From contig JALDRA010000001.1 in the NCBI GenBank assembly GCA_031316235.1, forward strand, positions 1,530,001 through 1,562,000: 32,000 nt of DNA. Direction: 5' to 3'. The translations under genes and the position numbers were made by a program. Positions 4,016-27,704 of the stretch are shown in pieces (position 1 is the stretch's first letter; each line of letters begins with the position of its first letter). The notes below the pieces were generated by a model. It did no database searches. It was not told where the DNA came from and saw nothing but the letters and a program-made list of their open reading frames with translations. The stretch is from Candidatus Scalindua sp. Lineage in GTDB: Bacteria > Planctomycetota > Brocadiia > Brocadiales > Scalinduaceae.

Positions 4016-4127
4016 TATACTAAAACCGATTTGGTTTTCGGATTTACCGGAAACCAAATCCTGGTGAAGGTGTACTCGCTCAATTTTATCTCGGATTTTA
4101 TCCGAAATCCAGTATGAGATGAGTATA
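4016..4127 (+). repeat. Family-A intergenic repeat (MITE-like), copy A1, short form
   Basis: TA|TACTAAAACCGATTTGGTTTT...CTCGGATTTTATCCGAAATCCAGTATGAGATGAGTA|TA. Internal hairpins are AAAACC/GGTTTT and CGGAT/ATCCG. Confidence 0.85.
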
Positions 4128-4174: not shown

Positions 4175-4762
4175 TTACTGGCTTGCTTTCTCCGAAAAGA
4201 TTTCAGACAATTTTTTCTTAAGAGCATCACGCCGTTCTTTACTTTCGCTGCCGGCCTTGTACTCTTCCAGCATGGTGTCTACCAGAAGATCGGCCACTTT
4301 GTCTAACTGTGTACCCATCTTTTTTTCAAGATTGACCTTTATCTTCTCTTTTAACAACTGCTTCTTCGCACAATTTGCAATTTTTAACAGATCATCTACG
4401 CAGTGACCATCACCTGACTTGCATCCACTTTTCTTCCTGCAGGGGGTATCGCATCCCGGTTTACATCCATAGTTCCTGTCGTGATGACATGCATGTGAAT
4501 CGGCACTGCATCCCGGTTTACTTCCACACCTCTTTTCGTGATGACATGTCTGGTCATTTTTGCAGCAGACAGGTTTAGACTCACACTCACTCGCTGCTTT
4601 GCAAACGGGAGTTTCACTTTTATCAACGGACTTTGTCTCTTCCTTTGCAGTTTGAATCCCTTGTGCAGATACTGGAGTACCGGCTCCTGCAAAGTTCAAC
4701 ACGAAACAGGAAAGACTCAACAGTGAAACGAATAAAACTACAGGTTTTAATTTCATGAACAT
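4175..4762 (-). CDS. Secreted Cys/His-rich repeat protein, putative periplasmic metal-binding protein
   Basis: Signal peptide MFMKLKPVVLFVSLLSLSCFVLNFAGAGTPVSAQG. There are two 19-aa units, CHHEKRCGSKPGCSADSHA and CHHDRNYGCKPGCDTPCRK, encoded by a 57-nt DNA period (4451-4491 and 4508-4548). The C-terminal half is helical and charged. Confidence 0.7.
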   Translation of the reverse strand: MFMKLKPVVLFVSLLSLSCFVLNFAGAGTPVSAQGIQTAKEETKSVDKSETPVCKAASECESKPVCCKNDQTCHHEKRCGSKPGCSADSHACHHDRNYGCKPGCDTPCRKKSGCKSGDGHCVDDLLKIANCAKKQLLKEKIKVNLEKKMGTQLDKVADLLVDTMLEEYKAGSESKERRDALKKKLSEIFSEKASQ

Positions 4763-4832: not shown

Positions 4833-4945
4833 TATACGGAAACCTATCTGGCTTTAGATTTTTCTCAAAGCAGAGGCCCGGGTGCCGGTATACTTTCCCG
4901 GTTTATTTCCGGATCTTACCAGAAAACCATTATAAAATGATTATA
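4833..4945 (+). repeat. Family-A repeat, copy A2 (degenerate)
   Basis: TA|TACGGAAACC..GGCTTTAGATTTTTCTCAAAGCAGAGGCCCGGGTGCCGGTAT...CCCGGTTTATTTCCGGATC...AATGATTA|TA aligns along its length with copy A8. Confidence 0.6.
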
Positions 4946-6281: not shown

Positions 6282-6394
6282 TATACGAAAACTGATTTGG
6301 TTTTAGCTTTTTCTAAACACCAAAGCCCGGGTGCTGGCATGCCCGCACAGTTTTTCCCCGGATTTTATCCGAAGACCAATATAAGATGAGCATA
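6282..6394 (+). repeat. Family-A repeat, copy A3, between the alpha and beta oxidoreductase genes
   Basis: TA|TACGAAAACTGATTTGGTTTTAGC...CCCGGATTTTATCCGAAGACCAATATAAGATGAGCA|TA. It ends 1 nt from the alpha-subunit stop codon (6396-6398). Confidence 0.8.
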
Positions 6395-8635: not shown

Positions 8636-8821
8636 TGTACTCATCTTATACTGGATTTCGGACAAAATCCGGGAATAAACAGAGCGAGTAAGGTCCTCGG
8701 TGTCTGGGGATACCTTAACCAGGATTTGGTTTCCAGCCCGCCCGGCCTGTCAGCTGTTCGTCAGCCCGATACTCATTCGACGGGGACGGGTAAAACCGGA
8801 AACCAAAGCGGTTTTCGTATA
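8636..8821 (-). repeat. Family-A repeat, copy A4, long form (186 bp) with extra internal modules
   Basis: The reverse complement reads TA|TACGAAAACCGCTTTGGTTTCC...CAGCTGACAGG...GGAAACCAAATCCTGGTTAAGGTATCCCCAGACACCGAGGACC...CCCGGATTTTGTCCGAAATCCAGTATAAGATGAGTA|CA. Confidence 0.85.
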
Positions 8822-10883: not shown

Positions 10884-10998
10884 TATACTAAAAACCAAAG
10901 CCTGGTTGCTGTTACCCCCCGGGCAAAAAAACGCCGAGGACTTTACCCGCTCTGTTTTTTCTCGGATTTTATCCGAATTCCAGTATAAGAAGAGTATG
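10884..10998 (+). repeat. Family-A repeat, copy A5 (5' hairpin module deleted)
   Basis: TA|TACTAAAAACCAAAGCCTGGTTGCTG...GGGCAAAAAAACGCCGAGGACTTTACCCGCTC...CTCGGATTTTATCCGAATTCCAGTATAAGAAGAGTA|TG. Compared with A8 it lacks the segment between the two CTAAAA(A)CC repeats. Confidence 0.8.
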
Positions 10999-12783: not shown

Positions 12784-12915
12784 TATACTCATCTCATACT
12801 GGATTTCGGATAAAATCCGAGATAAAATTGAGCGAGTATACCTTCACCAAGATTTGGTTTCCAGCCTGTCAGCTGTTCGGACGGGTAAAACCTAAAACCA
12901 AACCGGTTTTCGTAT
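12784..12915 (-). repeat. Family-A repeat, copy A6 (132 bp, with the CAGCTGACAGG module)
   Basis: The reverse complement reads TA|TACGAAAACCGGTTTGGTTTTAGG...GAACAGCTGACAGGCTGGAAACCAAATCTTGGTGAAGGTATACTCGCTCAATTTTATCTCGGATTTTATCCGAAATCCAGTATGAGATGAGTA|TA. Confidence 0.85.
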
Positions 12916-13039: not shown

Positions 13040-13459
13040 ATGAAAATCATAACTGACTCCGTAGAGATCTCTACACGGGGAAACACCGACATTATTGATA
13101 TAACGCAGGAGATAACAGATCTCCTGGATAAAGCCGATCTTACCAGGGGAACCGTAACGGTTTTTGTCTCGGGTTCCACGGCTGGTGTAACCTCAATTGA
13201 GTATGAACCAGGATTGATAAAGGACATTCCGGAAGCCTTTGAGAGGATTGCCCCTGCTGAAATGAGCTATCACCATAATGCCACCTGGGGCGACGGCAAT
13301 GGTCACTCCCATGTACGTGCCGCCCTGCTGGGCTCATCCTTTATCGTTCCCTTTCATAATGGCAAACTGCTCTTAGGTACATGGCAGCAGATCGTTGTAA
13401 TAGACTTTGATAATCGGCCGCGCAAACGGAACGTGGTTGTTCAGATGATGGGTGAATAG
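13040..13459 (+). CDS. yjbQ: YjbQ/UPF0047 family protein (secondary thiamine-phosphate synthase type)
   Basis: The 139-aa size fits. Motifs are TVFVSGSTAGVTSIEYEPG, GNGHSHVRAALLGSS and LLLGTWQQIVVIDFD.RPR.R, characteristic of the family. Confidence 0.85.
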   Translation: MKIITDSVEISTRGNTDIIDITQEITDLLDKADLTRGTVTVFVSGSTAGVTSIEYEPGLIKDIPEAFERIAPAEMSYHHNATWGDGNGHSHVRAALLGSSFIVPFHNGKLLLGTWQQIVVIDFDNRPRKRNVVVQMMGE

Positions 13460-13485
13460 CTCGTGTTTGAACGAAAAGTACCCAT

Positions 13486-13723
13486 CTACTGTGTTGCTGT
13501 AACAATTCCGTAATCCTCACGTACCTGAGTACGTTTCAGTTACGAAATTGTTGCGTGCCCTGTACACTAAAACCGATTTGGTTTTTAGCTTTCCAAAGAA
13601 CCAAATCTTGGTGAAGGTATCCCCGGACAAAAAGCGCCGAGGACTTTACGCGCTCCGTTTTAGCTCGGATTTTATCCGAAATCCAGTATGAGATGAGTAT
13701 ACCTGGGCAGTTTTGGTTCAAAC
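13486..13723 (+). repeat. Family-B hairpin repeat, copy B1, interrupted by family-A copy A7
   Basis: 13486-13564 and 13700-13723 together align with the uninterrupted copy B2 (14625-14724). The hairpin arms are 13501-13513 and 13540-13552. Confidence 0.8.
13563..13701 (+). mobile_element. Family-A repeat, copy A7, inserted into B1 at a TA with TA duplication
   Basis: Filled site: CCCTG-TA-[CACTAAAACC...GATGAGTA]-TA-CCTGGGCAG. Empty paralogous site at 14697-14712: CCTTG-TA-TCTGGGCAG. Confidence 0.85.
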
Positions 13724-13799
13724 AGAGGGTTTCCCGTTCAAGTATCAGCTACGGATTTAAGAATTTTCCCATTTGTGATATATTTTCCTTGATATCATA

Positions 13800-14075
13800 A
13801 TGTCACACTTTATAATGATAAGGATTATACCGCGATTCATTGAACCGTTTCTTCTTAAATCTCTTAAAAACGTTCCTGTTGTTACTCTTCTGGGCCCAAG
13901 GCAGGCAGGAAAGACAGCGCTTGCACAAAATCTTGTACAGAAGATAGGCAACTGGAAGCCTTTTGAATATCTCGATTTGGAGAACAAGATTGATCTTGCA
14001 TAACTGAACCAAAAGAAACTTTTTCTGAGTGGTTTCCATAAGAAATTTCTGATTATTTTTTAACAAATTATTATT
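13800..14075 (+). pseudogene. N-terminal fragment of an AAA ATPase (AAA_14/DUF4143-type), truncated
   Basis: ...VPVVTLLGPRQAGKTALAQNL...YLDLENKIDLA is followed by a TAA, then the same frame continues LNQKKLFLSGFHKKFLIIF* and stops again. Full-length relatives as I recall them are roughly 400 aa. Only about 90 codons remain. Confidence 0.6.
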
Positions 14076-14111
14076 TGAATATAGCCTGCTGAAAGTGGTA
14101 TAATTACGACA

Positions 14112-14609
14112 ATGACTATACAAATCACAAATAACTTGAGTGGTTTTCTGGATAGAAGCGGGATTGCAAAAGTACTCCAAGTAAAGAGAGACTTTGTTAA
14201 CACAGCGCGTTCGTTCACAAAGCAGGTCAAGGCGAACCGGGAAGAGAGAGGAGAGAGATTTACCGCACTTATGATGAAGGTCGCCATTTTCAAACTTTCA
14301 GCGGCAGCAGTAACGCTTGTTGTTATGGCAACGCTGTTCCTTACCCGTATTCATCTCTTTGCACCAATAACCGCGCAATTCTCAAAATGGGTCACTTCAC
14401 CCTTAATCGGATTTATTCTGTTTGTTATCGTATTAAAGTTTGCAGCCATCTCAACAGGCATTTACCTTACCGTCCTGTCTGCAAAAGAGATGACGGGTCT
14501 GGAAGCCCGCTTATGGATTAGGACAACAGTAAAACGAAAACTCCAACTCCTTTTCAGAAGGAAAATGTCGCTTCAAAGAGCTGCTGTCACTCCTTCTTCT
14601 TCAAGATAA
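14112..14609 (+). CDS. Hypothetical membrane protein (2-3 predicted TM helices)
   Basis: A 165-aa ORF with hydrophobic stretches AAAVTLVVMATLFL and LIGFILFVIVLKFAAISTGIYLTVL. There is no convincing SD and I recognise no family. It may be a relic. Confidence 0.4.
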   Translation: MTIQITNNLSGFLDRSGIAKVLQVKRDFVNTARSFTKQVKANREERGERFTALMMKVAIFKLSAAAVTLVVMATLFLTRIHLFAPITAQFSKWVTSPLIGFILFVIVLKFAAISTGIYLTVLSAKEMTGLEARLWIRTTVKRKLQLLFRRKMSLQRAAVTPSSSR

Positions 14610-14624
14610 ACTGAAACAGCACAC

Positions 14625-14724
14625 CTACTGCGTTGCTGTAATAATTTTGTAATCCTCACGTACTTGAGAACGTTCCGGTTACAAAATTATTTCGCGCCTT
14701 GTATCTGGGCAGTTCTAGTTTAAC
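14625..14724 (+). repeat. Family-B hairpin repeat, copy B2 (uninterrupted)
   Basis: CTACTGCGTTGCTGTAATAATTTTGTAATCCTCACGTACTTGAGAACGTTCCGGTTACAAAATTATTTCGCGCCTTGTATCTGGGCAGTTCTAGTTTAAC. It has a perfect 13-bp stem, 14640-14652 with 14679-14691. Confidence 0.8.
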
Positions 14725-14779
14725 TACATTTAAAATTAATAGTGGAAATCTCTTCATACCAACTATAACATGAATCCAT

Positions 14780-15300
14780 ATGCAGATATCCTTAGCACAA
14801 ATAAATCCAAAGGTTGGGGCCTTTAAACAGAATGCAAGGAAGATCTGTAAAGTATCGGGAAACAAATCTGAACTTGCCGTTGGCTATTTGTACCCTCTAT
14901 GGAGACATGTGCGGTGGTTTGGCCGTAATATCCGATATACCCAAGACCCTGGTATACCATTTGGTCAAACACATAAACCTCAGGAGGGAAATTATTCCCA
15001 GGAACACCATCGAGAACCGGTATCAGCGGAGTTAACACCGAACCAGAAGGACTAGGATTCACTTCCTCCGTATGGTACTCTCGGCAGCATACTAAAGGCC
15101 TGTGTAGATGAATCGAAAGATGTACATACTATTGTAAAGCTCGGTTTCTGTGAGTCACTTGTCAGAGATATCGTTAAGAAAGTTGACGGGAACGATTATA
15201 AACGTAATCACTGCCTCAGGAGGACTCAAGGTCACTTCTAAGGCTTTGGAACAAGCAGACGTATGCCTCTTGCACAGGGATACACGAAGATACAATAGGG
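14780..15300 (+). pseudogene. nadE: nadE (glutamine-dependent NAD+ synthetase) relic: N-terminal ~25 codons fused to the C-terminal ~150 codons, with frameshifts and an in-frame stop
   Basis: [22 protein letters not shown] runs directly into [10 protein letters not shown]. The sequence then shifts frame to [30 protein letters not shown] and shifts back to [14 protein letters not shown] follows, then DSLPPYGTLGSILKACVDE...DYKR. A final shift gives GGLKVTSKA. Confidence 0.75.
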
Positions 15301-15338
15301 GTAAAAAGACTATACCCATAAGTTGCACGCAAAAATGA

Positions 15339-18300
15339 CTATTTGAAAGATTCGATCCCACCTGCACGCTGAGAATTCAAAATTGTTCTAACACTTTGCA
15401 AGACTTCGGCCTCTGCCTCGCCAGCATCCTCTCTAATCCATTCTGATAGTTGCCTATTTATCCATCTCTTGAGTTCACTGTCATCTTGTATAGCAATAGG
15501 GATAGGATAAATCCGTGCAAACTCATGGGCAGCAATTCTATTTCTATATCCATACCTAAACCATGCTAACGAATCACGACTATTGCACCCATTTCGAATG
15601 CATAATGGTAATAAAGGCATCTCTCCTAATTGATCGCTTAAAAGGTCTGATTCCTCAAGAATAACAAGTAATGCACCAGCATAAATCGACAAGTGATGTA
15701 AGACTCTCCCTGCAAATGAGAAAATTGCAGGAATATGATTCTGCCCTTGGCTTCTTTTTCCATTTACCACATCTAGTTCTATTCCCAAGAAAACGGAAGC
15801 AATTTCAGCGTAAGTGCTTCCACTCATATACATCCAGATTAAACCGGACAACTCTGTCCACAACCCACCCCAATCATCTGGAATTTCCCATTCTACTGCA
15901 TATCCGTTTTCGCCAATGCGTTCCAGCATTTTGTCAAGGACTGTGTTCATTTTTCGTACGCTTTCAGGCATAATCTTAAGAATATCTTTGGGTGGTAGTC
16001 GCTCCATAACTTTAAGAAATAGATTTAGACAACTTTGTATATTTGTATTCTCAAACTCATCAATGTTATTATTGGAATGACCCAGGCTACACCACAACCG
16101 CCAGCATGTTAGCAAATTAATACCACCTTTCATTGTGGCCATTGGTATCCAGTCCGGCATATTATATTTTTCAACAAGGTTCTCTCCAATATCCCGAACC
16201 CTCCCAACCACTGCTTCAATATCAAGTTCTATTTGCTGTCTTTGCGCAAGATATGCACCGAGAGTATGTCTAAGCACGTCGGCATTTTGTTCTCGTTCTT
16301 TTCCAAGCTGCGCAACCAAATCGAGTTCCTCTGAACTATAGACACCAAGATCCTCGTTTGGAGACAATCTTTCAACAAATGATTTAATGGGGGAAGAAAC
16401 TTGAACGCATCTGTCCGAAACACTTAATAACCTATAACTTTGGATAACTACATCTACACCAACGTGTTCGAGCAATGGGCCAAAAAATGGATCATCTGAG
16501 ACTAATACTGCCAAACCGTGATTAGCAACCATTGCTCTCCCTGCACGGCCAAATGCATTAAGTATCGTAGCCTCAGCACCCCGAACCCCTCCTATGTTGT
16601 CTGCTTTACGGGAATCACCTAACGAAGATCCCGCAACGACGACAATATCTGCTGGCAAATTCAATCCTTGCGCAAGTGTTCGAGTAGCAAACAGAAGCCG
16701 GATAGATCTATTTCCAAAACTTCTTTCAACAGCAGCCTGTTCCGAATCCAACATTGCACTTGAATGAACCCCCACACCTTTGCGTAGTAACTCATCCACT
16801 TTTGAAGGAACACCCAATTCAGCATTGGCAAGACCAATTAATCCTTCCGTATGTTGATCTAAGACTATATCACTATTCAATTCACATTTCTCTGCACTGC
16901 TAAACACATGGTGTCTACTCGTGAGTATGAAGCACAGAACATTAAAGCCCGCGTTGTAAAACTGCTCCGAAAGCTGGCGCCCTGCAGTATTCTTCCAACT
17001 CTTAAAGTCTGCATCATCACCAAGTAGTCCTGAAGTGCCCTGCTTAGCTTTGCTCTCAAAAGTAAAAGGAACAGGAATGGACACATAGTCTTCTTCATTA
17101 CCATTTTCTTCCCAACGCAAACACATCCCTCCCAGAAGGCCCAGCGGTACATCAAACTTAACAAACTTCCTAGTAGGGGATAAAACATCAAACTGTGATC
17201 TGGCAATACTAAGAGCTTCCTCTGTTTTCTCTTGATTAACAAACAAAAGGCTCCTTAAAGTTCGACATGGTCTCCAAGGAATCTGAATTAACGGCACTTC
17301 TTGACCATCTCTTAATTTATGTAACCACTCAGTAACATCGTCACCATTTGAAACCATAGCTGACATCAGGAGAAGACGTGTTTCTGAATTCAACGTTAGA
17401 ATCTGTGCTAAACAAAGATCTAATGTAATCCCTCGATAATCGTCATTGATTGTATGAAACTCATCAACGATGCAGAGCCGACAATTTTCAAATATGTTTG
17501 GATTAATGCGAAACGCCATGGCACATTTTTCTGGAGTCATAACAGCAACAGACATCTCAGGCGGTGTTTCGAGGTGCTCTCCTGCCAAACTCGTATACTC
17601 TTGCCCTCCAACAAAAGATAGTATCTGTATCCCATGAAACAACTTAAAAGCAATTTGTAAATCACGTTGCACCTGATTTACCAGAGCATTGGTTGGAGCC
17701 AGATATAATACCCAGCCATTCTGCATGGCCTGACTACAAGCCAACTCTGCAATAAAGCTCTTCCCGCTCCCGGTAGGAACGACCACAATTGCGTCAGCTT
17801 TCGGTCCGGGAAAGGTGTCTTCTACATATTCTTTTGCAGATGGCCACAGAAAAGGACGCTGTGTTGCACGTGAGGCCAAATAACGTTCATATTCTACTGA
17901 CCCCATTTGTCGCGTCTTAATTCCTTGACCAAGTGTTGCACGTGAGGCCAAATAACGTTCATATTCTACTCTCCTATCTCCCTGCATTTCTGGACGTGGT
18001 AAATTATGCATTAAGGAGAGAGGCTTACTTGAATGAACGACATGAATTAGCAAGGTACATAGATGTAACAAATCAGAGAATGGTACAGCGGTGAAAGTTT
18101 TCGTAGCTGGTCGTAATTTCTGAGATAATTGTTTGAGTTCTTCTTCTATATTAACCGTCACCACACTTCCAGTCAACCACCTACAATAGAATTTTACAAG
18201 GTCAGCTAAACGAACCATAGCTGCAATTCGTGCAGCAACTAAAGAATTATATTGGTCATAATTAATGCTGAGAGCATTCTGAATGTTGTCAAGTTTACCC

Positions 18301-18821
18301 GTAGCAAGCGCACAGATTACATTTTGAAGATAGGAAATAATTTCAATATCTCGCTGATCATGATCATATGTTTCCAGAAATAACTGACCTTTTACTTCAT
18401 TTACAGAGCAATGAGCATTTATCTGATATTCACTCGCCAAATACAGCAAAGCGCTTTCAATTCGAGCATAAGCCATATCCACACCCACATTACCATCGTC
18501 CCGAACTGCTTTCGCAAAACTGCACCATAGGTCAATAGCTTCTGCTGCTATGAATGCATGGGAGCGCATACGTTTTAAAGCGTCCTCATCGTGACCCTCT
18601 GATTCATTAAACAAATATTGTTCCATGGCATTGGCTAAGCGTCGAAGATAATCACAAGCCTTCTCTATGGACTCCTTAGATTCCCCAAGTTCTGAACCAT
18701 TCAGTCTTAATTGAATCAAGGCAAAGTAAAGACGCGACAACCGTCTCCGACACTCCTTCCAATCAGTGTCATCCAGTTCCGGCAGTTGCTTCAAACAATC
18801 CTCTGCAAATTCATCATACAT
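15339..18821 (-). CDS. Large SF2 helicase, Ski2/Hel308-like core with long N- and C-terminal extensions; HamB-like candidate
   Basis: Motif I VVVPTGSGKS, Ia LAPTNALVNQ, Ic MTPEK, II IVDEFH (17454-17471), III SAM, V FATRTLAQGLNLPA and VI FGRAGR (16536-16553). The core spans about aa 335-790. The start overlaps the upstream gene by 8 nt (ATGTATGA), and GAGGAG lies 10 nt upstream. Confidence 0.85.
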   Translation of the reverse strand: MYDEFAEDCLKQLPELDDTDWKECRRRLSRLYFALIQLRLNGSELGESKESIEKACDYLRRLANAMEQYLFNESEGHDEDALKRMRSHAFIAAEAIDLWCSFAKAVRDDGNVGVDMAYARIESALLYLASEYQINAHCSVNEVKGQLFLETYDHDQRDIEIISYLQNVICALATGKLDNIQNALSINYDQYNSLVAARIAAMVRLADLVKFYCRWLTGSVVTVNIEEELKQLSQKLRPATKTFTAVPFSDLLHLCTLLIHVVHSSKPLSLMHNLPRPEMQGDRRVEYERYLASRATLGQGIKTRQMGSVEYERYLASRATQRPFLWPSAKEYVEDTFPGPKADAIVVVPTGSGKSFIAELACSQAMQNGWVLYLAPTNALVNQVQRDLQIAFKLFHGIQILSFVGGQEYTSLAGEHLETPPEMSVAVMTPEKCAMAFRINPNIFENCRLCIVDEFHTINDDYRGITLDLCLAQILTLNSETRLLLMSAMVSNGDDVTEWLHKLRDGQEVPLIQIPWRPCRTLRSLLFVNQEKTEEALSIARSQFDVLSPTRKFVKFDVPLGLLGGMCLRWEENGNEEDYVSIPVPFTFESKAKQGTSGLLGDDADFKSWKNTAGRQLSEQFYNAGFNVLCFILTSRHHVFSSAEKCELNSDIVLDQHTEGLIGLANAELGVPSKVDELLRKGVGVHSSAMLDSEQAAVERSFGNRSIRLLFATRTLAQGLNLPADIVVVAGSSLGDSRKADNIGGVRGAEATILNAFGRAGRAMVANHGLAVLVSDDPFFGPLLEHVGVDVVIQSYRLLSVSDRCVQVSSPIKSFVERLSPNEDLGVYSSEELDLVAQLGKEREQNADVLRHTLGAYLAQRQQIELDIEAVVGRVRDIGENLVEKYNMPDWIPMATMKGGINLLTCWRLWCSLGHSNNNIDEFENTNIQSCLNLFLKVMERLPPKDILKIMPESVRKMNTVLDKMLERIGENGYAVEWEIPDDWGGLWTELSGLIWMYMSGSTYAEIASVFLGIELDVVNGKRSQGQNHIPAIFSFAGRVLHHLSIYAGALLVILEESDLLSDQLGEMPLLPLCIRNGCNSRDSLAWFRYGYRNRIAAHEFARIYPIPIAIQDDSELKRWINRQLSEWIREDAGEAEAEVLQSVRTILNSQRAGGIESFK
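17861..17970 (-). repeat. Perfect 38-bp direct repeat (17861-17898 and 17933-17970) spaced 72 bp apart, in frame, inside the helicase gene
   Basis: GTGTTGCACGTGAGGCCAAATAACGTTCATATTCTACT occurs twice. It encodes VEYERYLASRAT twice, separated by LGQGIKTRQMGS, just N-terminal of motif I. Confidence 0.9.
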
Positions 18822-19692
18822 TGTCCACTAACTCCTCAGCTTTGATCCGCATAAAGCTTGATATCTCATCAAAAAATGCATCGAAATCATCTACAGCATG
18901 TGGCATAACCACCACCGGTGCTGTAAGATCATTAAAAGCTGTTCTTGGCCGCCCCCATTGTACAGTGACACCATTTGCTTCATAATGTGGATTAGGGATG
19001 AGAGTTCTTTCATTCTTCCATAAGGATAACGAAAGTTGCTGTTTATATGGTTTCTCGATGACTGAATTAAATGACGTAATTACTTGCCGAAGTCGTGTGT
19101 CGTGCACTCCCGCTTCTATAGATTCGAACATTATAACAGCTTTACTAATGGCTTCATTTGGATTGTTTCGATATGCTTTTGTTTCAACAAAAGACATTCC
19201 CAAGATTCCATCATCTCTTACATATAATGCGGTCACATCTAGCCCGTGGTCCTTTGGAGAGACATTAGGAAGATCGAGAGCAATAATAGTTCCTTGTGTA
19301 TGAAATTCAGGGCATTTCATCGCAATATGCATGCAACAATGCCAAATACCTTCAGCAATCCATGCATTCCGCCACTTTGATTTCCAGTCCTGTTGACTTT
19401 CTTTAGAGTCAGTGGATTGTTCAATAATCTCATTAACAGACCGCAAAATACCATATGCATAATCAGGGGTAGAGCCGATCAAATCAGAACAAATGCTACC
19501 AGCCTGATCGATGACACCAGCTCTTAATGACACTAGGTATACAGCCAAAGCATCAATAGTTTCCTCGCGTTGCCACCCAGTTACCTCTACAACAGTATGA
19601 GTCTCTGCATAAATATTGCTTACGACCAATGAATCCTTAAGAACGGATAGTGACTCGTTTATTTTACTCTTGAGTATTTCAGACAAGACCAT
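18814..19692 (-). CDS. PD-(D/E)xK-like putative nuclease, HamA (DUF1837)-like candidate
   Basis: The 292-aa protein has HGLD152VTALYV...GMSFVE170TK172AY, which gives D-x17-E-x-K in a strand-strand context. It is translationally coupled to the helicase. The family assignment is by architecture and motif only. Confidence 0.6.
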   Translation of the reverse strand: MVLSEILKSKINESLSVLKDSLVVSNIYAETHTVVEVTGWQREETIDALAVYLVSLRAGVIDQAGSICSDLIGSTPDYAYGILRSVNEIIEQSTDSKESQQDWKSKWRNAWIAEGIWHCCMHIAMKCPEFHTQGTIIALDLPNVSPKDHGLDVTALYVRDDGILGMSFVETKAYRNNPNEAISKAVIMFESIEAGVHDTRLRQVITSFNSVIEKPYKQQLSLSLWKNERTLIPNPHYEANGVTVQWGRPRTAFNDLTAPVVVMPHAVDDFDAFFDEISSFMRIKAEELVDNV

Positions 19693-19828
19693 AAGTATAT
19701 TCCGCTGAATTTTGGTTTAAATGGTTAAGTCATAATATTATCGAAAGGATCAGGTATATTACATCTTTACACATTCGCGATTCTTGTTAATAGTACTTTT
19801 AATGGGAACAATCGACGATGCCATACTA

Positions 19829-20071
19829 TCAATCAACAACACACAAAGCAAAATATGGTACTATGTTAAATACAAATATAGCAATCTTAAGATACATCAT
19901 TCCCGCATAGTGAAGAGTATCGAACTTATCAACCGGTATTTTGAACCATTTACAATGGATCCGATACACCCAATCGTGAGCAAACAGAATAAACAGGAAC
20001 CAGTAAAGCAGCAATCCCATGTTTATTACGGAACACCATCCCAGAAAAGAACGTATAATTTCAATAGTCAT
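19829..20071 (-). CDS. Small (80 aa) two-TM membrane protein, conserved-looking, function unknown
   Basis: A strong SD (AAGGAGG) lies 9 nt upstream of the ATG. The sequence is LLLYWFLFILFAHDWVYRIHCKWFKIPVDKFDTLHYAGMMYLKIAIFVFNIVPYFAL. From memory it resembles a widespread DUF-type small membrane family; this is unverified. Confidence 0.65.
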   Translation of the reverse strand: MTIEIIRSFLGWCSVINMGLLLYWFLFILFAHDWVYRIHCKWFKIPVDKFDTLHYAGMMYLKIAIFVFNIVPYFALCVVD

Positions 20072-20095
20072 TTTTTATTGCCTCCTTACTGTTCC

Positions 20096-20299
20096 TCAAT
20101 CAATAACCATAAAACATTTTTCCATAAGAAATGCCTGAAGTTTATTAATAATGTTCTTTACAAGAGTCGATTCCTTAAAATTATATTCACGAACATTGGG
20201 ACTGTTAATGCACATAATGAGATGGATATGAGTCCAACTCAATTCTCTACATGGTGTGTAGAGTTTTTCACTACTTGGAAATACATTGTGAGTTTCCAA
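20096..20299 (-). pseudogene. Possible fragment of a YhcG/DUF1016-type (PDDEXK-associated) gene
   Basis: ELSWTHIHLIMCINSPNVREYNFKES resembles the LSWSH...L......R.FY..EA segment of DUF1016 N-terminal regions. Only 67 codons remain and there is no SD. This is a weak call. Confidence 0.25.
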
Positions 20300-20763
20300 G
20301 TAGTGGATTGTTTTCGGTAAATCTAAACTGCAGTTGAGTCGTTTATGGGTATTTCATCCCACGTAACACCATCAAGAATTCTCTGTTTCACTGTGGTCTA
20401 TTGAATTTCATTATAAAAGAGGGCAGATGTTTTACAAACTAAAAGATTATTCACTACAAAAACCAGATCGAGAAGGAGAGATATTGCAAATTATGAATTA
20501 CAATTTCAGCCCGCCCTGGTGCTACTCGCCCTGCAGTCTGGTCTCGGAATTTATGATTTGAAAATAACGAATGATTCATTTTGTCAACTGGTTGCTTAAG
20601 GCTCAAAAAAAAACAACTTGCTAATTTTTCCTGGGCCCTTAGTTTGCCAGTCCAAAATTCTTTCTTGCGGGAATGTTGACCTATTGGGGACATGATTGAA
20701 ACTATTTGAAATGCACATGCCCCGATCAGTTTTTTTATACAAAATATTGTATATGTTTATCAT

Positions 20764-22836
20764 CTAAACTTTATTGTGACACAGCCTGCTTGATTGAGGA
20801 ACCTCGATGTCTTCTGGCTCTCTCCCTTCATGATACAAGAACACCATTTTTTTATATGCCGTTTCCAGACATCGGACAAAAGAGTGAGTGTCAAACAGGG
20901 GAGAGGTTGTACGATTTTCCGCCAACCTGCTCCGTACACCATCACGTTTCGCCGGTGAAGACGCTAACCCTATAGCAAGGTTCTCATATTCTGACAGGTC
21001 TTTTGCTACGAGTTCCGGCAGCCCAACTGCATGAAGCATACTTGAACCGACCCTGGAAGCAAAATGCCCCCCTTCCAGCGTGATTACCGGAACTCCCGCC
21101 CATAACGCATCACTACCCGTAGCATGTCCATTATAAATGCGTGTATCCAGCATGAGATCTGCAAGACGCAATCGCGCGAGATGATCTTCTTTTGTGTCAA
21201 CTTTATCTGTAAAGAGCAGGCGGTCAGGGTCTATGTTTTTTTTCACCGCCTCTTCCCTGAGATTTTTCTCCGCAACGGAATTACTTCGGGACAACCACAA
21301 TACACTGCCGGGTACGTGTGCTAAAATACGCATCCATACACCGAAGAGAACCGGCTCTATTTTGTACATACTATTAAGGGAACAAAACACTATTGCGTTT
21401 TCAGGCAGGTCAAAATCTCTTCTCCTGAAATGCCTTTCTGAAATTCGCTGTGCATGATCACTCACCATATAGCTATAGGGCATATATACCACTTTCTCAG
21501 AATAATGGTGGCGCAGACCATGGGGGACCAGAATCCTGTCAGCAATGATATAATCAAAGAAATCTGCACCGCTTGATCCTGCAAAGCCCAGATAATTCAC
21601 CTGGATAGGTGCCGGACGCATCGCACTGATATCGAGCCTTCCCCCTTCTGTATACACTACCAGGTCGACGAGTATGTCGACCTGATCATGAAATATTTTC
21701 TCTGCTGCTTCCCGGTCATGATAATCGCTGATATCAATGAATTGATCAGCATCTTTCATTATTTTTTCCCGGTATCTGCTGCCGTCATCTCTTCCATACG
21801 AGTAGGCAACAATCTCAAAGCAATCCCTGTCATGAAGGCTGAAAACACTTTGCATCTGGTGAGCAACGGGGTGATTATTAAAGTTGTTTGAAAGATATCC
21901 CACCTTTACCTTTTTCTTATTCAGCGTCCTCCCATCAGAAGCGAAGGGAGGAAAAATTCGGGATATCCGGCTGCTTATTTCCCTGGCCCTTGAAGATGCG
22001 ATCTTGATATTCTCTTCAGGATTTATCTTTCTTGAAACACTCATGAAAGGTGTCTCAACCGCCTTCTCTCCCCTTTCCAGATTGCTCTCTGCAATGAGAT
22101 TTAATCTTGGTTCAAATTCCTTCATCTTACACCAGCTGCAGGTTGCCTGCAGCTGCCGGAAAAGATTTACCACTGCATATTTGTCGTTCGGGTTCATCTC
22201 AAGCGCCTGCTCAAATCTCCTGATAGACTCTTCCAATTCCCCAACCGAACTTAAAGAGAGTGCAAGGTTACTGTATGATTGAGAAAAGTGTGGATCAATT
22301 TCCAGCGCACTACGAAAATTTTTAATCGCCTCTTCAAATGCTCCTGATTTGTGACATGCCTGACCCAGATTGTCATAGGCTTCAACATAACGGGAATTGA
22401 TTGCCAGTGCCCTGCGATACCGGAATATCGCCTCATGCAACCTGTTCTGTTCAAAGAGCACAACACCCAGACCATTCTGGGCACACATATTATTCTGATC
22501 AAATTTCAGGGCCTGTTGATAAGCACGGGTCGCATATCCAGGCATTCTCTTTATTCTATAGACATTGGCAAGGTTATTATAATATAAGGAACTTTCCGGT
22601 TTGATTGATATCGCTTTTGTAATCAATTCTAATGAAGTGTCATATTTACCAAGCTGAGAGCAGACGACTCCCAGCAAATTGAGCGCATCAGGATTTTGAG
22701 GATTCTCTCTTAAAATCCGCTGAAAGATAAGAGCTGCATTATCTAAATCACCCACCTGAAGGCAGGAAACACCTCTCTTCAATAATGCCACCTGTCTCTT
22801 CGTACTATATTTTTTTCTGAGAAACCTGGTTTTCAT
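20764..22836 (-). CDS. TPR-repeat protein fused to an O-GlcNAc-transferase-like (GT41/SPINDLY-type) glycosyltransferase domain
   Basis: The N-terminal ~230 aa form tandem TPRs (e.g. AIFRYRRALAINSRYVEAYDNLGQACHKSG). The C-terminal half shows VGYLSNNFNNHPV, NYLGFAGSSGADFFDYIIAD, TRIYNGHATGSDALWAGVPVITL.G..FASRV. Confidence 0.85.
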   Translation of the reverse strand: MKTRFLRKKYSTKRQVALLKRGVSCLQVGDLDNAALIFQRILRENPQNPDALNLLGVVCSQLGKYDTSLELITKAISIKPESSLYYNNLANVYRIKRMPGYATRAYQQALKFDQNNMCAQNGLGVVLFEQNRLHEAIFRYRRALAINSRYVEAYDNLGQACHKSGAFEEAIKNFRSALEIDPHFSQSYSNLALSLSSVGELEESIRRFEQALEMNPNDKYAVVNLFRQLQATCSWCKMKEFEPRLNLIAESNLERGEKAVETPFMSVSRKINPEENIKIASSRAREISSRISRIFPPFASDGRTLNKKKVKVGYLSNNFNNHPVAHQMQSVFSLHDRDCFEIVAYSYGRDDGSRYREKIMKDADQFIDISDYHDREAAEKIFHDQVDILVDLVVYTEGGRLDISAMRPAPIQVNYLGFAGSSGADFFDYIIADRILVPHGLRHHYSEKVVYMPYSYMVSDHAQRISERHFRRRDFDLPENAIVFCSLNSMYKIEPVLFGVWMRILAHVPGSVLWLSRSNSVAEKNLREEAVKKNIDPDRLLFTDKVDTKEDHLARLRLADLMLDTRIYNGHATGSDALWAGVPVITLEGGHFASRVGSSMLHAVGLPELVAKDLSEYENLAIGLASSPAKRDGVRSRLAENRTTSPLFDTHSFVRCLETAYKKMVFLYHEGREPEDIEVPQSSRLCHNKV

Positions 22837-23190
22837 GTCACATTCGCTTTCCCTGATTGATTTCTTCTCATCTGTTTGCCCTTATCAGAAAACTTCCAGC
22901 ACCAGAACTAATCAGCTAACCCTATACCAAATTTGCAAAAAAAATGCTTACCGCATAAAATTCCAGAAGCAACAACCAGGGAAACACTTATGTAACGGAT
23001 TTCATGGTAAGAAGTAAAGTCATTGATCGGATCGCTTTCCATACATTGCTGTATTGTATAAATATACATCGGGTTACGCACATCCTGCCATCCTGAATGA
23101 AGGAAGTCCGACAGGGTCCGGAAAGGTGTTTTTCCAAACAGACAACATGTTATCCTCTGATTTACCTGCAGTTGCCGACAATCGCTCAAT

Positions 23191-23595
23191 TTATTTTTTG
23201 CCAATCATCTCATACTCCTGATAGAGTGACTCTTCTTCGTGCGTTATTCGTGCATTAAGGGCAGCAAAAAGACTTTCAAAATTTATCGAAAAATCTTTGC
23301 CGGTACCTCCTTCAGAATATGTATCAAAAAATTCTGCCACAACCCTGGAAACGTACTCAGGATCCATTGCAAACAAATCTAATTCCCTTTTCAGATTTTT
23401 ATTATGCTCTGCCTCTTTTCTGAGAGCTGGATATAGTTGTTCGTCCTCATGTTTCAGATGCTCAAGCAAAACCCCTTTCAGACTCAAGAGTTTGGCCTGT
23501 CCCTCCTTTGAATGAATACCAATTTTCTTAACCTCTCTGAGCAAGGCAATGATTTCGCAATGCTCCCTCTTAAATCGTTCAATAATTTCTGACAT
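23191..23595 (-). CDS. Hemerythrin-like (HHE cation-binding) domain protein
   Basis: A 134-aa helical protein with H/E ligand spacing: KREHCEI, LEHLKHEDEQLYPAL, ITHEEESLY. Confidence 0.7.
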   Translation of the reverse strand: MSEIIERFKREHCEIIALLREVKKIGIHSKEGQAKLLSLKGVLLEHLKHEDEQLYPALRKEAEHNKNLKRELDLFAMDPEYVSRVVAEFFDTYSEGGTGKDFSINFESLFAALNARITHEEESLYQEYEMIGKK

Positions 23596-24017
23596 TTTAT
23601 TCTCCTCTATTTCCCGTCTCCTGTTGTTTCGTACGGTTTTATAGCAACAGTTCCTAGAAGTTCTCCCATTGGTATCACTTTTAATACATGTGCAGCATTA
23701 TAGCAAGAAATTTTGTTTGAAAATTTCTGCATACCGGCAGTGTACCATGCCGGCAAGGGTTACTTACTGTTGCAGAAACACCCCCACCTGCGTGGGGAAG
23801 ACCTTTCACCTGATTGTCTTTGTTCCTCCCGTGATATCTATATCGGATTTTGTAAGTTTAGTCACCCGAATTGATAATATGCGGCAGGATGTACCGCTCA
23901 TAAAGACCCATTTTTTATCCTGCTGACGAAAGCAATAGTACTGAATTAAGGAACTCGTCTCCTTTGCCCTCTTTCTTTTTACCCTCTCTCCTCAGTAAAA
24001 ATCGAGTCAATATTGTA

Positions 24018-24050
24018 ACGATACTGAAACCAAATCGGTTTCAGTATCGT
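24018..24050. repeat. Isolated 14-bp-stem hairpin related to the 5' module of family A (ACGATACTGAAACCaaatcGGTTTCAGTATCGT)
   Basis: The core TACTGAAACCAAATCGGTTT matches the reverse complement of the A-element 5' end TACTAAAACCGATTTGGTTT. It lies 41 nt downstream of the stop of the 24091-25839 gene (minus strand). Confidence 0.55.
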
Positions 24051-24090
24051 AAATTCCGGCCAGGTTCCGGTTCGACCAGGTCGTGTTCTC

Positions 24091-25839
24091 CTAATTGGCG
24101 GCACACTCAAGCACCCCGGTATAATCTTTCGTGCTCCATTGACTACCCAATACCTCACCCATTACACGGTACGATCCTGTTTCAAGTCCTATGTCCTGTT
24201 TTTCCAGTGTATAGATAAGTTTTTTGCCGCTTGAAACAAGGTGAACAGGTTTTATGTACTTCCAATCCCATGTATTACCATCACCGGAATAGCGGTAGAG
24301 TTCCCCGTCCATAACCATGTGCGAAGCTCTAATTTCATAGTTTCTAAACCCGCTGTAAACTTCGTCTGTATCTATGAAAATAACATAGTGATTTGAGAAC
24401 TTTGGTATTTTCCGAAAAACCATCTCCACGATCAGTTCCGAAACAGAGCCTGTTGAGGTCTGCAGTATAATATCCTGATGACCTTTGATTGATATATCAA
24501 TGTCATCTTCCATCTGACAGACAACATCGGTCAGGGAAACCTTTGTCACTCCCCTCAGGATGTTACTCGTATCCTGATTATCCCAGGTGGAATTCAATGT
24601 GGCAGCCATTGCTGAGACGAGTGTGTTGTTGCCTGTCTCTATTGACGAAGGGAATATCTCAGTGGTAATAGTGTTATTAATAATGGAACTCCTCACATCC
24701 CTGAGATATTCCCATGACCAGCTTGTCCCGCTACCGTTATATTTGTATAAACAGCCATCTTCTATCATATAGTTTGCAGAAAATTCGGTTGTTGTATAAT
24801 AGACAGGATCACCAGGCCTCAAGGTACTGATATATATCTGGTAGTGGGTGCTGTTTCCGGCAATATCCCCATCCATGGTAACGTGGTATTGTATCCCGTC
24901 ATCCCGGGTTTCCACCCTGAATTCTGTTATATCCACTGCCCGTTCTATGGTACTGTCCACTTCATCAGGAATCAGGTAAAGGTTCATCTGATCCAGCCGG
25001 GTAACAAATATATCTGTTGTTGAGGGTATGAATCCAAACCTGATCGCTCTTTCTATTGCAAATTTAAGCAGATCATTATCATTTCCCGTCCTGTAATCGA
25101 GTGTCCAGATATCTATCGGATAATTCTGCATCAGTTGATTTAAAAGAGTCCCTGTCTCATCAAGATAACTCAGTTCTGATCCAGACCATTTTTTATATTC
25201 TTTGGTATCAAAATCGTAGAAGGAGCTGAACTCCTCAAACAGCAATGCATCGATTGTGCCTGCTGTTTCATTTATGATGGAAAATCCCCGGTTCTGCACA
25301 AGATAATAATCAGGGTAGTTGAGTCTTATCTTGATCACCAGTGCTATCATTCCGCTAATGGTCTCCGGGTATAGATCAACGGTATCAAGGGTATCGAGGA
25401 AAAGACCCTTTATACCTCTCGATGATATCTCCGGTATTTGTGTCTGAAGAATATAATCGTGCCATGCGTTGCTGTTGGCATTGACATAGTAGGACTCCCA
25501 GACAGGATTCCGGTCTGGAAAATTATCACCATCCTGATCCAGATACCATGAAGCATATCCGCCGGGCCCATTCTTATCTCCTGTAATCAGAGTATCTGTC
25601 TCACCAATGGAGAGATAGGTGATCAAACGTGCGCGTACATCTGATAAATCAGCAGAGATATTATCCGGAGAAAAAAGCCTTATATCTATCACAAGGTTTT
25701 CGTAGTCGTTCCATTTATCCGAAAATTCATCACCATAGTAAAATCCAAATTTATCTCTGGCTTCTGCATCTCCGCAGCTTATGACTACCACAAAGCAGGT
25801 TATAAAAACTGAAAGTGTTACCTTACTCAATAATTGCAT
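24091..25839 (-). CDS. Secreted GH114-like / MJ1477-TM1410-family putative glycoside hydrolase with two C-terminal repeat domains
   Basis: I set the start at the ATG at 25839, which gives the signal peptide MQLLSKVTLSVFITCFVVVISCG. TIM-barrel motifs are LVIDIRLF, ITYLSIGETD, NPVWESYYVN..SNAWHDYIL, GIKGLFLDTLDTVDLY. The C-terminal units share G(C/E)LY(K/R)Y(N/S)G.G(T/N)(S/T)W.W(E/K)Y. Confidence 0.75.
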   Translation of the reverse strand: MQLLSKVTLSVFITCFVVVISCGDAEARDKFGFYYGDEFSDKWNDYENLVIDIRLFSPDNISADLSDVRARLITYLSIGETDTLITGDKNGPGGYASWYLDQDGDNFPDRNPVWESYYVNANSNAWHDYILQTQIPEISSRGIKGLFLDTLDTVDLYPETISGMIALVIKIRLNYPDYYLVQNRGFSIINETAGTIDALLFEEFSSFYDFDTKEYKKWSGSELSYLDETGTLLNQLMQNYPIDIWTLDYRTGNDNDLLKFAIERAIRFGFIPSTTDIFVTRLDQMNLYLIPDEVDSTIERAVDITEFRVETRDDGIQYHVTMDGDIAGNSTHYQIYISTLRPGDPVYYTTTEFSANYMIEDGCLYKYNGSGTSWSWEYLRDVRSSIINNTITTEIFPSSIETGNNTLVSAMAATLNSTWDNQDTSNILRGVTKVSLTDVVCQMEDDIDISIKGHQDIILQTSTGSVSELIVEMVFRKIPKFSNHYVIFIDTDEVYSGFRNYEIRASHMVMDGELYRYSGDGNTWDWKYIKPVHLVSSGKKLIYTLEKQDIGLETGSYRVMGEVLGSQWSTKDYTGVLECAAN

Positions 25840-25919
25840 AAAAAACTCTTTCCAAAAATGCCCTTCAGTTGAACAAAGGAACAGCAACGCATTCCGGATC
25901 AAACTGAAGATTTCTAAAA

Positions 25920-26059
25920 TATACTAAAACCGCTTTGGATTTAGATTTTTCTAAAAACCAAAGCCTGGTTGCTGGTATCCCCGGACAAAAAGCGCCGGGG
26001 ACTTTCCTCTCTGCGTTTTTTCCCGGATTGTATCCGGAATCCAGTATAAGATGTGTACA
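25920..26059 (+). repeat. Family-A repeat, copy A8 (140 bp, with the M2 module)
   Basis: TA|TACTAAAACCGCTTTGGATTTAGATTTTTCTAAAAACCAAAGCCTGGTTGCTGGTATCCCCGGACAAAAAGCGCCGGGGACTTTCC...CCCGGATTGTATCCGGAATCCAGTATAAGATGTGTA|CA. Confidence 0.85.
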
Positions 26060-26736
26060 ATAAAATTACATCCCTTCTTTTTATGAGACTAAATATTTGA
26101 TACTGTACGGTTCCTGGGTGTACCTTTATCGCAGGAGATACATATGGTAAGAGTACAAATACCGCTCTCATGCCGGAAAAGATAATGCATTAACACGCAA
26201 CACAAGTACCATCACAAACAAATCACAAATAATTGTTATACTTTACAGAAATTGTTGCACTTGTGATTATTTCCTGGTTGAGGCAGCTGTTTCTCTCAAT
26301 TTGAAGTATTGCCTATTTACTGTACGAGTACAAACCCTGTCTTTCAATGGAAATTGATCAGATATCATGCACACAAAAAGTTCGTAACCTGGACATTCTC
26401 AAACATTTGAGATCACTGAATCATTACAGCCGTCCTGTCAATTACTCGTTTTGTTCAACCACCAGATAACAGAGCTCCGGGATAGGAAATAAACCCTTTC
26501 AAGCTTGCATTTCCGGAAAATTATCAATATAATCTACTCCGTATTTACCCCCCCACCTCACCTTCCATTGAACTTTAATATGAAAATTTCCAAAAAGGGT
26601 ATAATACAATTTGTGTAGTGCTGGTTTTACAATTTCCTCTCCGCATCAACAATACAGCAGATGGATAGTTTCCGTGTAGCAGCAGATTAAATTTTACCCC
26701 TCTTCCACAAAGACAACATTATAGCGCAGGCAGGAG

Positions 26737-27627
26737 ATGAACAGGCAAATTCGTATTTTATTTGTTGAGGATTCGCAGAATGATCTAGAATCGATGCTGG
26801 AAGAACTCCGGAATGGAAACTATGAACCGGTCTATGAGACGGTAAATACACCGGATGCTTTAATTGCAGCACTTGACAGTCAGCACTGGGACTTGATCAT
26901 ACTAGACTATTCCATGCAGAATGTAAAAGGAGTTGACGTTTTGAATCTTATACAGGAAAGGCAACTCAACCTGCCCTGCATTTTTGTATCAGACGTTAAA
27001 GGGGAAGATTTTGCGGTAGAGGCAATGAAAGCCGGCGCTGCTGACTATATCATGAAATACAACCTGAAAAAAATGGTGCCTTCTGTTGAACTTGCACTAC
27101 AGAAAGCGGATGAGCAGGTTAGAAAAAAGTCAGAGTCAGTGGAATTGAAAAAGAAGATTCTTGAGCATAAACAGACCGAAAAGACTTTACGCAAGAACGA
27201 AAAAAGGCTTCGGGGAATACTTGCCTCGCTTCATGAAACTGCCATTGCAGCCTATGACAGGAAAGGCTATATTGTTTCATTATGGGGTTCCCCAGCGCTG
27301 GATAAACGCTATGGTCTTCGTGCCGCTGACGTGGTTGGGAAGAAGCTTGTCGATCTTCTTCCGCCGGATCAGGCTGAGAAAAGACTTGCAGAACACAAAG
27401 AGGTCTTTGATACCGGCGAGGGCATGCCTGAAGATGCCAGGATGAATATATTTGACCCATTTTTTACTACAAAGCTGCCGAAGGGAACCGGATTAGGCAT
27501 GAGCGTGAGCTACAGTATCATCAGAAGACATGACGGCACGATAGAAGTTGAAAGCGAAACAGGCAGAGGAACCACAATTACCATACAATTACCGGTAAGC
27601 AAGGATCAAAGCCGAAGAGGTGAATAA
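26737..27627 (+). CDS. Response-regulator receiver domain fused to a partial PAS domain and only the C-terminal part of an HATPase_c domain (probable internally deleted hybrid kinase)
   Basis: The REC domain is RILFVEDSQND...DLIILDYSMQ...AGAADYIMK. A coiled coil follows, then the PAS start LRGILASLHETAIAAYDRKGYIV. The sequence DTGEGMPEDARMNIFDPFFTTKLPKGTGLGMSV.... contains G1-F-G2 boxes. No H-box or N-box is present. Confidence 0.75.
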   Translation: MNRQIRILFVEDSQNDLESMLEELRNGNYEPVYETVNTPDALIAALDSQHWDLIILDYSMQNVKGVDVLNLIQERQLNLPCIFVSDVKGEDFAVEAMKAGAADYIMKYNLKKMVPSVELALQKADEQVRKKSESVELKKKILEHKQTEKTLRKNEKRLRGILASLHETAIAAYDRKGYIVSLWGSPALDKRYGLRAADVVGKKLVDLLPPDQAEKRLAEHKEVFDTGEGMPEDARMNIFDPFFTTKLPKGTGLGMSVSYSIIRRHDGTIEVESETGRGTTITIQLPVSKDQSRRGE

Positions 27628-27704
27628 TGTTTCCCCCTACCCGGGTAGTTGTAATTTCCATCTCTGTTGTTAAAATATTCTTGAATTTCATCAGTTAATG
27701 TTCT

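Follow-up and report, generated by a model that had tools for sequence, protein, structure and literature searches.

How did a 135-bp segment come to lie inside one of two otherwise similar repeats, and what put it there? The question is raised by a 32,000-nucleotide stretch of the chromosome of the anammox bacterium Candidatus Scalindua sp. (GenBank assembly GCA_031316235.1, contig JALDRA010000001.1, positions 1,530,001 to 1,562,000; this whole stretch is hereafter the window). The window holds two copies of a repeat that we call family B: B1, interrupted by a short element of a second repeat family, A, and B2, which is uninterrupted. An initial annotation, made from the letters of the window, had proposed that the family A element inserted into B1 and duplicated a TA dinucleotide in doing so. 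Here we confirm the insertion, assign family A to the MITEs (miniature transposable elements with inverted repeats), argue that it was probably mobilised by a transposase acting in trans, and describe a strong, orientation-specific hot spot for such insertions at one TA of family B.

Results

Filled and empty sites of the B1 insertion

The B1 and B2 sequences quoted in the initial annotation are present where it placed them. B1 reads ...GTGCCCTG-TA-(CACTAAAACC...GATGAGTA)-TA-CCTGGGCAGTTTTGGTTCAAAC, the bracketed 135 bp being positions 13565–13699, and B2 reads ...GCGCCTTG-TA-TCTGGGCAGTTCTAGTTTAAC, with its TA at 14702–14703. Pairwise alignment of the two (MAFFT) opened a single gap, directly after the TA, with 79% identity over the 95 nt to its left; removal of the 135 bp and one TA left B1 colinear with B2, the two halves of B1 abutting exactly at one TA. 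The 19-nt core of the B apex occurs twice in the window against 0.01 occurrences expected, so the similarity of B1 and B2 is not due to chance. The two had been described as paralogues; they are homologous, but belong to a large mobile family, represented in our sample by about 100 copies, rather than forming a simple pair. Their boundaries also had to be redrawn: B1 had been made too small and extends over 13463–13745, with a 6-bp target duplication of its own, and the start of B2 was moved to near 14602, its 3′ end being cut near 14725 by a rearrangement breakpoint.

An exact scan with the B core across one genome per species (185,579 species genomes) found it in 96 stretches. These belong to just three genomes, those of Candidatus Scalindua sp. 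SCAELEC01 and Scalindua sp. RBC_AMX3 and the Scalinduaceae metagenome-assembled genome CBDCUS01; none of the rest has the core. Together with the window, the loci of these three genomes gave 104 B copies with enough flank to be scored. The internal segment is not a regular part of B: 93 of the 104 are uninterrupted and have a single TA at the position of the B1 insertion. Once the 135 bp and one TA were taken out, the junction in B1 could be aligned gap-free with 89 uninterrupted copies from other genomes, at best with about 89–90% identity.

The strongest evidence for insertion is an orthologous empty site. A CBDCUS01 locus (L101), reached via YjbQ protein homologues, matches the window in gene order on both sides (PFK, YjbQ, a 150-aa open reading frame (ORF) and TPR-GT41), and its B1 sits on the same YjbQ stop codon within the same 6-bp duplication (TAGCTT ... 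TAGCTA). There the site reads CACGCCTTG-TA-CCTGGGCC, with one TA and no family A element. At the SCAELEC01 locus (L085; the alignment containing it is 84.6% identical) the same TA of B1 is filled with an A copy, which shares private variants with the window copy and is shorter by 7 and 27 internal nt. The loci of two further relatives (L102 and L103) keep the gene order around YjbQ and are entirely devoid of B1. A metagenome scan for further B1 orthologues, anchored on sequence adjoining B1, gave 0 matches. Orthologous comparison of the window A copies at 10886 and 12786 met intergenic regions too diverged for a clean empty site.

The paralogous and orthologous comparisons and the copies of family A elsewhere (see below) thus agree that the 135-bp segment was inserted into B1. 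Because B1 is empty in L101 and filled in L085, and A occurs at many sites outside B, B1 preceded the A insertion; the A element arrived in an ancestor that the window genome shares with SCAELEC01, and the insertion, common to both, is old.

Families A, C and B

Copies of family A were sought in 789 kb of Scalindua DNA (the window and 100 loci) by their end patterns only, with no condition imposed on the flanks. There are 43 complete copies of 79–182 nt, eight of them in the window; most are intergenic and none contains a credible coding ORF. The termini deduced in the initial annotation from the B1 site, TAC...GTA flanked by TA, recur in the 43 complete copies (the copy in B1 itself has a T-to-C change at its first base). 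Outside B, TA is found at positions −2/−1 in 35/35 copies and at +1/+2 in 33/35, and no target motif of 4–5 nt or longer could be found at 34 non-B sites, where the only further trend was a weak A at −3. TIR-like ends (TIR, terminal inverted repeat) in the sample are flanked by TA in 106 of 142 cases. In-silico excision gave four more A copies with a matching empty site carrying one TA, three of them in another genome (L043 versus L017/L057, L049 versus L011 and L033 versus L077) and one within SCAELEC01 (L014 versus L015). A second B-internal site, in L082, likewise has the TA doubled (GCTG-TA-[A]-TA-AAAATT, with the element in brackets).

The ends of family A are 24-nt inverted repeats, TACTAAAACCGATTTGGTTTTCGG at the 5′ end and TACTCATCTCATAATGGTTTTCGG as the reverse complement of the 3′ end, which match at 16 positions: the terminal four (TACT), a subterminal block of ten (TGGTTTTCGG) and two in between. 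A internally carries a third copy of the terminus that pairs with the 3′ end, and there are local hairpins near both ends. Length forms are 108–109 bp (short) and 134–139 bp (long), and perfectly palindromic mini-variants of about 55 nt also occur. Since four SCAELEC01 copies are mutually 99–100% identical, family A has been recently active; two of the window copies share 80 nt at 98% identity. Being small, non-coding and multi-copy, with terminal inverted repeats and an insertion that doubles TA, family A is a MITE. A solo palindrome at 24020–24048 of the window is similar to its 5′ hairpin.

A metagenome scan with the A 3′ repeat returned just two ordinary TA-flanked copies, and neither B nor A was found in a scan of viral contigs. 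A Logan contig (L001, SRR28338161_754084) that is 100% identical to window positions 13676–17216, apparently from the same strain, starts inside the A copy. We also considered whether A tends to abut the ends of other elements; three cases (L003, L015 and L029) against about one expected with intergenic TAs were not significant. A scan for promoters and terminators around the locus gave nothing attributable to A or B.

Family C is a TA-flanked repeat of about 178 nt with ends TACCCATCACAAATTGGTTTTCGG, 20/24 identical to the A 3′ repeat. It was seen in L017, L022, L026, L043, L015, L029 and L062, with no copy seen in the window. The ends of A and C are symmetric, TATAC...GTATA with the TA flanks, and the two are sister families with common 24-nt terminal repeats.

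Family B has the ends GTG(T/G)TTGAAC...GTTCAA(A/C)CAC (GTGTTTGAAC...) and comes in two forms, short (126 nt) and long (145 nt), the latter with the 3′ end repeated. Of 78 B copies, 35 lie between 6-bp direct repeats of the form TANNTA with no more than one mismatch, such as TAAGTA|B|TAAGTA or TACCTA|B|TACCTA. Without the A element, B folds into a single long hairpin (−51.3 kcal/mol, z = −7.0), its arms forming 49 pairs with 93% of cells paired and 18 compensatory pairs, values that 0 of 500 shuffles reached. With terminal inverted repeats, a 6-bp duplication and many copies, family B is itself a MITE.

A hot spot at one TA of family B

The TA that was hit in B1 has been hit repeatedly. Across the sample it carries nine A insertions (in the window, L085, L007, L014, L034, L092 and, three times, L081) and five C insertions (L022, L026, L043 and, twice, L017). 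All 14 have one polarity, and the A insertions comprise different subfamilies (101–138 nt). The other TAs of B hold no more than two or three insertions. The chance expectation for the hot-spot TA is about 0.1–0.5; the value of 0.5 is obtained if about 58 elements fall on the 13,472 TAs outside long ORFs, of which about 110 are hot-spot TAs. The hot spot is strong and orientation-specific for both families.

In the B hairpin this TA belongs to a 3-bp helix with an internal loop on one side and a TT bulge on the other. B contains the motif TTTTGGTT, and a TIR-like TTGGTT adjoins the hot-spot TA on its 3′ side. As a cause of the hot spot TTGGTT finds no general backing, not being enriched beside 34 non-B A sites; for B itself it is neither supported nor excluded.

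How the family A element was mobilised

Alongside the observed filled and empty states, single and double TAs, termini, dispersed copies and order of events, we favour the reading that family A is a non-autonomous, TA-inserting MITE that entered B1 after B1 was in place and was moved in trans by an enzyme of the IS630/Tc1-mariner DDE type (a probability of roughly 0.8). We infer the enzyme because no transposase was found. A family B element landed on the YjbQ stop codon before three Scalindua lineages split, and A later entered one TA in the B 3′ arm in the ancestor of the window genome and SCAELEC01. Most likely, a DDE transposase of this type bound the terminal repeats of A; it would have joined the 3′ ends of the element to the TA with a 2-bp stagger, and gap repair would then have duplicated the TA. 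IS630/Tc1-mariner transposases insert almost only at TA, which becomes duplicated, as seen for ISY100 in vitro (PMC2170065), and the bacterial Correia, ERIC and RUP MITEs have TA at their termini, RUP being attributed to IS630-Spn1 (PMC2229807). Family A behaves in the same way, with TA as its insertion site and a 2-bp TA duplication.

Several points weigh against this reading. No autonomous A or C element and no transposase gene for one was found in the window, the 100 loci or the two metagenome matches. The 789 kb contained no TIR pairs 0.4–4 kb apart that enclose a transposase ORF, ORF clustering found no multi-copy ORFs there, and the IS630/Tc1 motifs DE[ST]GF, LDNxxxH and PYSPxLNPxE were absent from its six-frame translation in a regular-expression search. 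When pairs 0.4–6 kb apart were considered as a parent of A and C, they enclosed a glycosidase (L029) or integrase fragments (L022) and were discarded. The terminal repeats of A are only 16/24 identical, and a palindromic TA target does not predict the one polarity of all 14 hot-spot insertions. IS630 is not the sole candidate family; duplication of 2 bp is also a trait of the IS427 subgroup within the IS5 family. Finally, a TA duplication made by repair and a conservative exchange at a TA core are inseparable by sequence, as are cut-and-paste and copy-and-paste; the initial annotation's TA-duplicating cut-or-copy-and-paste mechanism accordingly stands as an insertion with a doubled TA, without the choice of mode.

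Conservative exchange is the alternative that survives best, and we consider it unlikely. It supposes recombination at a TA core by a serine (IS607-like), IS110-type or HUH/Y1 (IS200/IS605 or RAYT-like) enzyme, the second TA belonging to the element. Elements of IS110 and IS200 type behave with REP sequences much as A and C do with B, in that the target lies in a hairpin repeat and is entered with one polarity (PMC1525189); A has its local hairpins near both ends, and the window encodes a Y1 transposase-like protein (1222–2208). Against this, the 24-nt terminal repeats of A and C are inverted and their ends symmetric (TATAC...GTATA), such repeats being absent from IS200/IS605, and TA is the sole feature common to the 34 varied target sites outside B, so that neither an IS200/IS605 nor a REP/RAYT pattern is seen. 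The hairpin repeats flanking the Y1 gene (GGGTCAAGTCCATACTTGAC..., three copies in the sample) are unrelated. The inverted terminal repeats, together with the lack of a longer target motif, argue against IS200/IS605, RAYT, IS607 and IS110 mechanisms alike.

Still less probable is that the recurrence of A at the same B TA reflects gene conversion between B paralogues, or a composite B::A unit moved by the B transposase. Position and orientation are indeed identical in all hot-spot cases, and L007 and L081-6313, whose A copies are 100% identical and whose hosts are 97% identical and have a separate 6-bp B duplication each, might represent a composite that transposed. The hosts of four near-identical A copies, however, are 83–97% identical and each is closest (93–98%) to a different uninterrupted B; outside the one 97% pair they are 83–90% identical and differ within 8–10 nt of both junctions, too close for homologous exchange. 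This combination of host divergence, distinct closest relatives and differences near the junctions points to separate insertions rather than conversion or one composite. The same TA moreover holds different A subfamilies as well as family C, and the pattern so far is the opposite of one B::A clade matching the tree of the A parts. At least seven of the A insertions at the hot spot are independent, the L007/L081-6313 pair being a possible exception. The last alternative, that the 135-bp segment was an original module of one B subfamily and the uninterrupted copies are its deletion derivatives, draws on nothing beyond the bare B1/B2 comparison and is already refuted by the A copies at 34 or more sites unrelated to B, by the 93 B copies that lack the segment and share exactly one TA, and by the orthologous B1 of L101, as independent deletions would not all remove the element and exactly one TA.

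Trans-mobilisation of a TA-inserting MITE therefore remains our preferred account of the B1 insertion, and for the hot spot we offer a tentative extension to which we give slightly less than even odds: that the A/C transposase is steered, in one orientation, to the single TA in the B 3′ arm, and that B serves as a dedicated 'safe-harbour' landing pad. The steering may come from the structure of B or from B sequence that resembles the A/C terminal repeat. Selection on the B::A composite may alternatively be the source of the pattern.

Features of the window and neighbouring genes

Coordinates of the repeat features are collected in Table 1.

Table 1 Repeat elements and target sites in the window.
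Feature	Position	Strand	Remarks
5′ copy of B1 6-bp target duplication	13457–13462	+	TAGCTC, ancestrally TAGCTA; L085 and L101 keep TAGCTA on the 3′ side
B1 left part (family B)	13463–13562	+	5′ terminal repeat GTGTTTGAACGAAAAG, 5′ arm, conserved apex GTAATCCTCACGTACCTGAGTACG, start of 3′ arm
Left target TA	13563–13564		Not doubled in the 93 uninterrupted B copies or in L101's orthologous B1
Family A element (MITE) in B1, long form	13565–13699	+	135 bp, no ORF; inside B1
5′ terminal repeat of this A copy	13565–13588		CACTAAAACCGATTTGGTTTTTAG
3′ terminal repeat of this A copy	13676–13699		CCGAAATCCAGTATGAGATGAGTA
Right target TA	13700–13701		
B1 right part (family B)	13702–13745	+	CCTGGGCAGTTTTGGTTCAAAC plus long-form 3′ extension AGAGGGTTTCCCGTTCAAGTAT
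3′ copy of B1 6-bp target duplication	13746–13751	+	CAGCTA; TAGCTA in L085 and L101
B2, uninterrupted diverged family B copy	14602–14725 (start and end approximate)	+	
Unoccupied TA of B2	14702–14703		Homologous to the TA hit in B1
A copy, short form	4018–4125	+	108 bp, TA/TA
A copy, diverged	4835–4943	+	109 bp, TA/TA
A copy, diverged	6284–6392	+	109 bp, TA/TA; within the pyruvate:ferredoxin oxidoreductase gene cluster
A copy	8638–8819	−	182 bp, extra sequence in 5′-hairpin loop; flanks TA and decayed CA
A copy, first hairpin arm deleted	10886–10996	+	5′ TA, 3′ decayed TG
A copy	12786–12914	−	129 bp, TA/TA; inverted relative to the copy in B1
A copy, long form	25922–26057	+	136 bp; flanks TA and decayed CA

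The locus has ordinary chromosomal genes around it (those for pyruvate:ferredoxin oxidoreductase, PFK, SAM synthetase and SecA). The YjbQ/UPF0047 gene occupies 13040–13459, and its stop codon TAG lies within the 5′ copy of the B1 target duplication. The A copies at 12786–12914 (−) and 13565–13699 (+) bracket this gene in a layout like that of a composite transposon; we rejected the idea that they carried YjbQ as a unit, as the two enclose the left half of B1 and no such unit inserted into B1. Between B1 and the next gene is a 67-aa N-terminal fragment of an AAA_14 ATPase (13800–14003), a pseudogene remnant conserved in the window, SCAELEC01 and CBDCUS01 and absent in L102 and L103.

The 5′ end of B2 overlaps the last codons and the stop of the ORF at 14112–14609, and supplies the 3′ end of that ORF. 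At its own 3′ end, B2 is truncated at about 14725, where a 6-kb segment (14726–20793) has its left breakpoint; SCAELEC01 (L085) and CBDCUS01 (L101) lack this segment at their orthologous loci. This segment contains a 1,160-aa DEAD/DEAH helicase (15339–18821), with a perfect 38-nt direct repeat (17861–17898 and 17933–17970, spacing 72 nt) within its ORF, two ORFs without family matches and the ORF at 19784–20320, which has a sub-threshold DUF4679 match only. L085 also lacks a 4.8-kb segment (23077–27870) that contains a GH114-like ORF, the A copy at 25922–26057 and a response-regulator/HATPase ORF.

The ORF at 1222–2208 combines an IS200-like Y1 transposase domain with a DnaA-C-like helix-turn-helix; its best NCBIfam match, to REP-associated tyrosine transposase (RAYT), scores 65.5 bits, below the cut-off of 80. 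Inverted hairpin repeats (1172–1199 and 2184–2211) flank it, and a similar repeat is found in L029. We regard this gene as an unlikely mobiliser of the families described here, its flanking hairpins being unrelated to A, B and C. Beside it, at 2316–2989, an AF2212-like small ORF is followed with a 4-nt overlap by a PIN-domain ORF; the two are probably a toxin–antitoxin pair. The ORF at 4175–4762 contains a 57-nt tandem duplication (4451–4564) whose copies are 70% identical. A tRNA scan of the window found nothing.

Discussion

Insertion of one small mobile element into another is a phenomenon of a well-known kind. For nested Stowaway and Tourist MITEs of maize and rice, Jiang and Wessler reportedly used filled and empty pairs within one genome in 2001; from such pairs one learns where these eukaryotic elements end, what they duplicate (TA for Stowaway) and which targets they prefer. 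To our knowledge, no single-nucleotide, orientation-specific hot spot has been reported for them.

Among bacterial elements, RUP of Streptococcus pneumoniae is organised in the same way as family A, being a MITE of about 107 bp with short terminal repeats, TA termini, 100 or so copies or more, and a tendency to insert into other mobile elements (PMC2229807). It differs in having a candidate parent with matching terminal repeats, IS630-Spn1, whereas the 789 kb searched here held none for A, and A in turn differs from RUP in targeting one specific TA of another MITE in one orientation. Correia/NEMIS elements of Neisseria also resemble A: they have terminal repeats of about 24 nt, TA termini and no known transposase, an internal segment distinguishes their length variants of about 107 and 155 bp, and their boundaries were defined from filled and empty sites (PMC2229807, PMC10969869). 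They belong to another phylum, have another sequence and carry near-perfect terminal repeats, unlike the 16/24 of A; the likeness of A to RUP and to Correia/NEMIS is one of organisation only. With ISY100 and other IS630/Tc1-mariner elements A shares near-exclusive insertion at a duplicated TA, the flanking TAs lying outside the element (PMC2170065), but those elements are autonomous and encode a DDE/DDD transposase, whereas A encodes nothing and no such gene was found in the 789 kb. The closest parallel to the hot spot is offered by insertion sequences that target REP sequences (ISPa11, ISPpu9/10, ISPsy8, ISRm22 and others), for which a hairpin-forming intergenic repeat is the preferred landing site (PMC1525189). 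These are full-length and highly target-selective, whereas A and C are MITEs that also use many unrelated TAs, and in the case described here the host repeat, B, is itself a transposon with its own target duplication.

Rfam 15 at gathering thresholds gave no match anywhere in the window, and we found no paper on MITEs or repeats of Scalindua, nor any in a survey of MITEs in 183,232 genomes; families A, B and C therefore appear to be undescribed. The hot spot is the only part of this work that goes beyond textbook MITE biology, and it is modest and unexplained.

For Scalindua, the outcome is that three small mobile families of this anammox lineage are now defined with exact ends and target duplications. 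Repeats of the A type fragment short-read and metagenome assemblies, as where the Logan contig breaks inside an A copy, and the habit of B elements of sitting on stop codons and supplying the 3′ ends of ORFs matters for annotation. Presence or absence of the insertions provides a clean phylogenetic marker among Scalindua lineages. If the steering of A and C to B is true, it would be an instance, in bacteria, of a TA-duplicating transposon that integrates with a site preference and in a specific orientation, and in B a simple transposon would have a natural docking site, preferred and defined in orientation.

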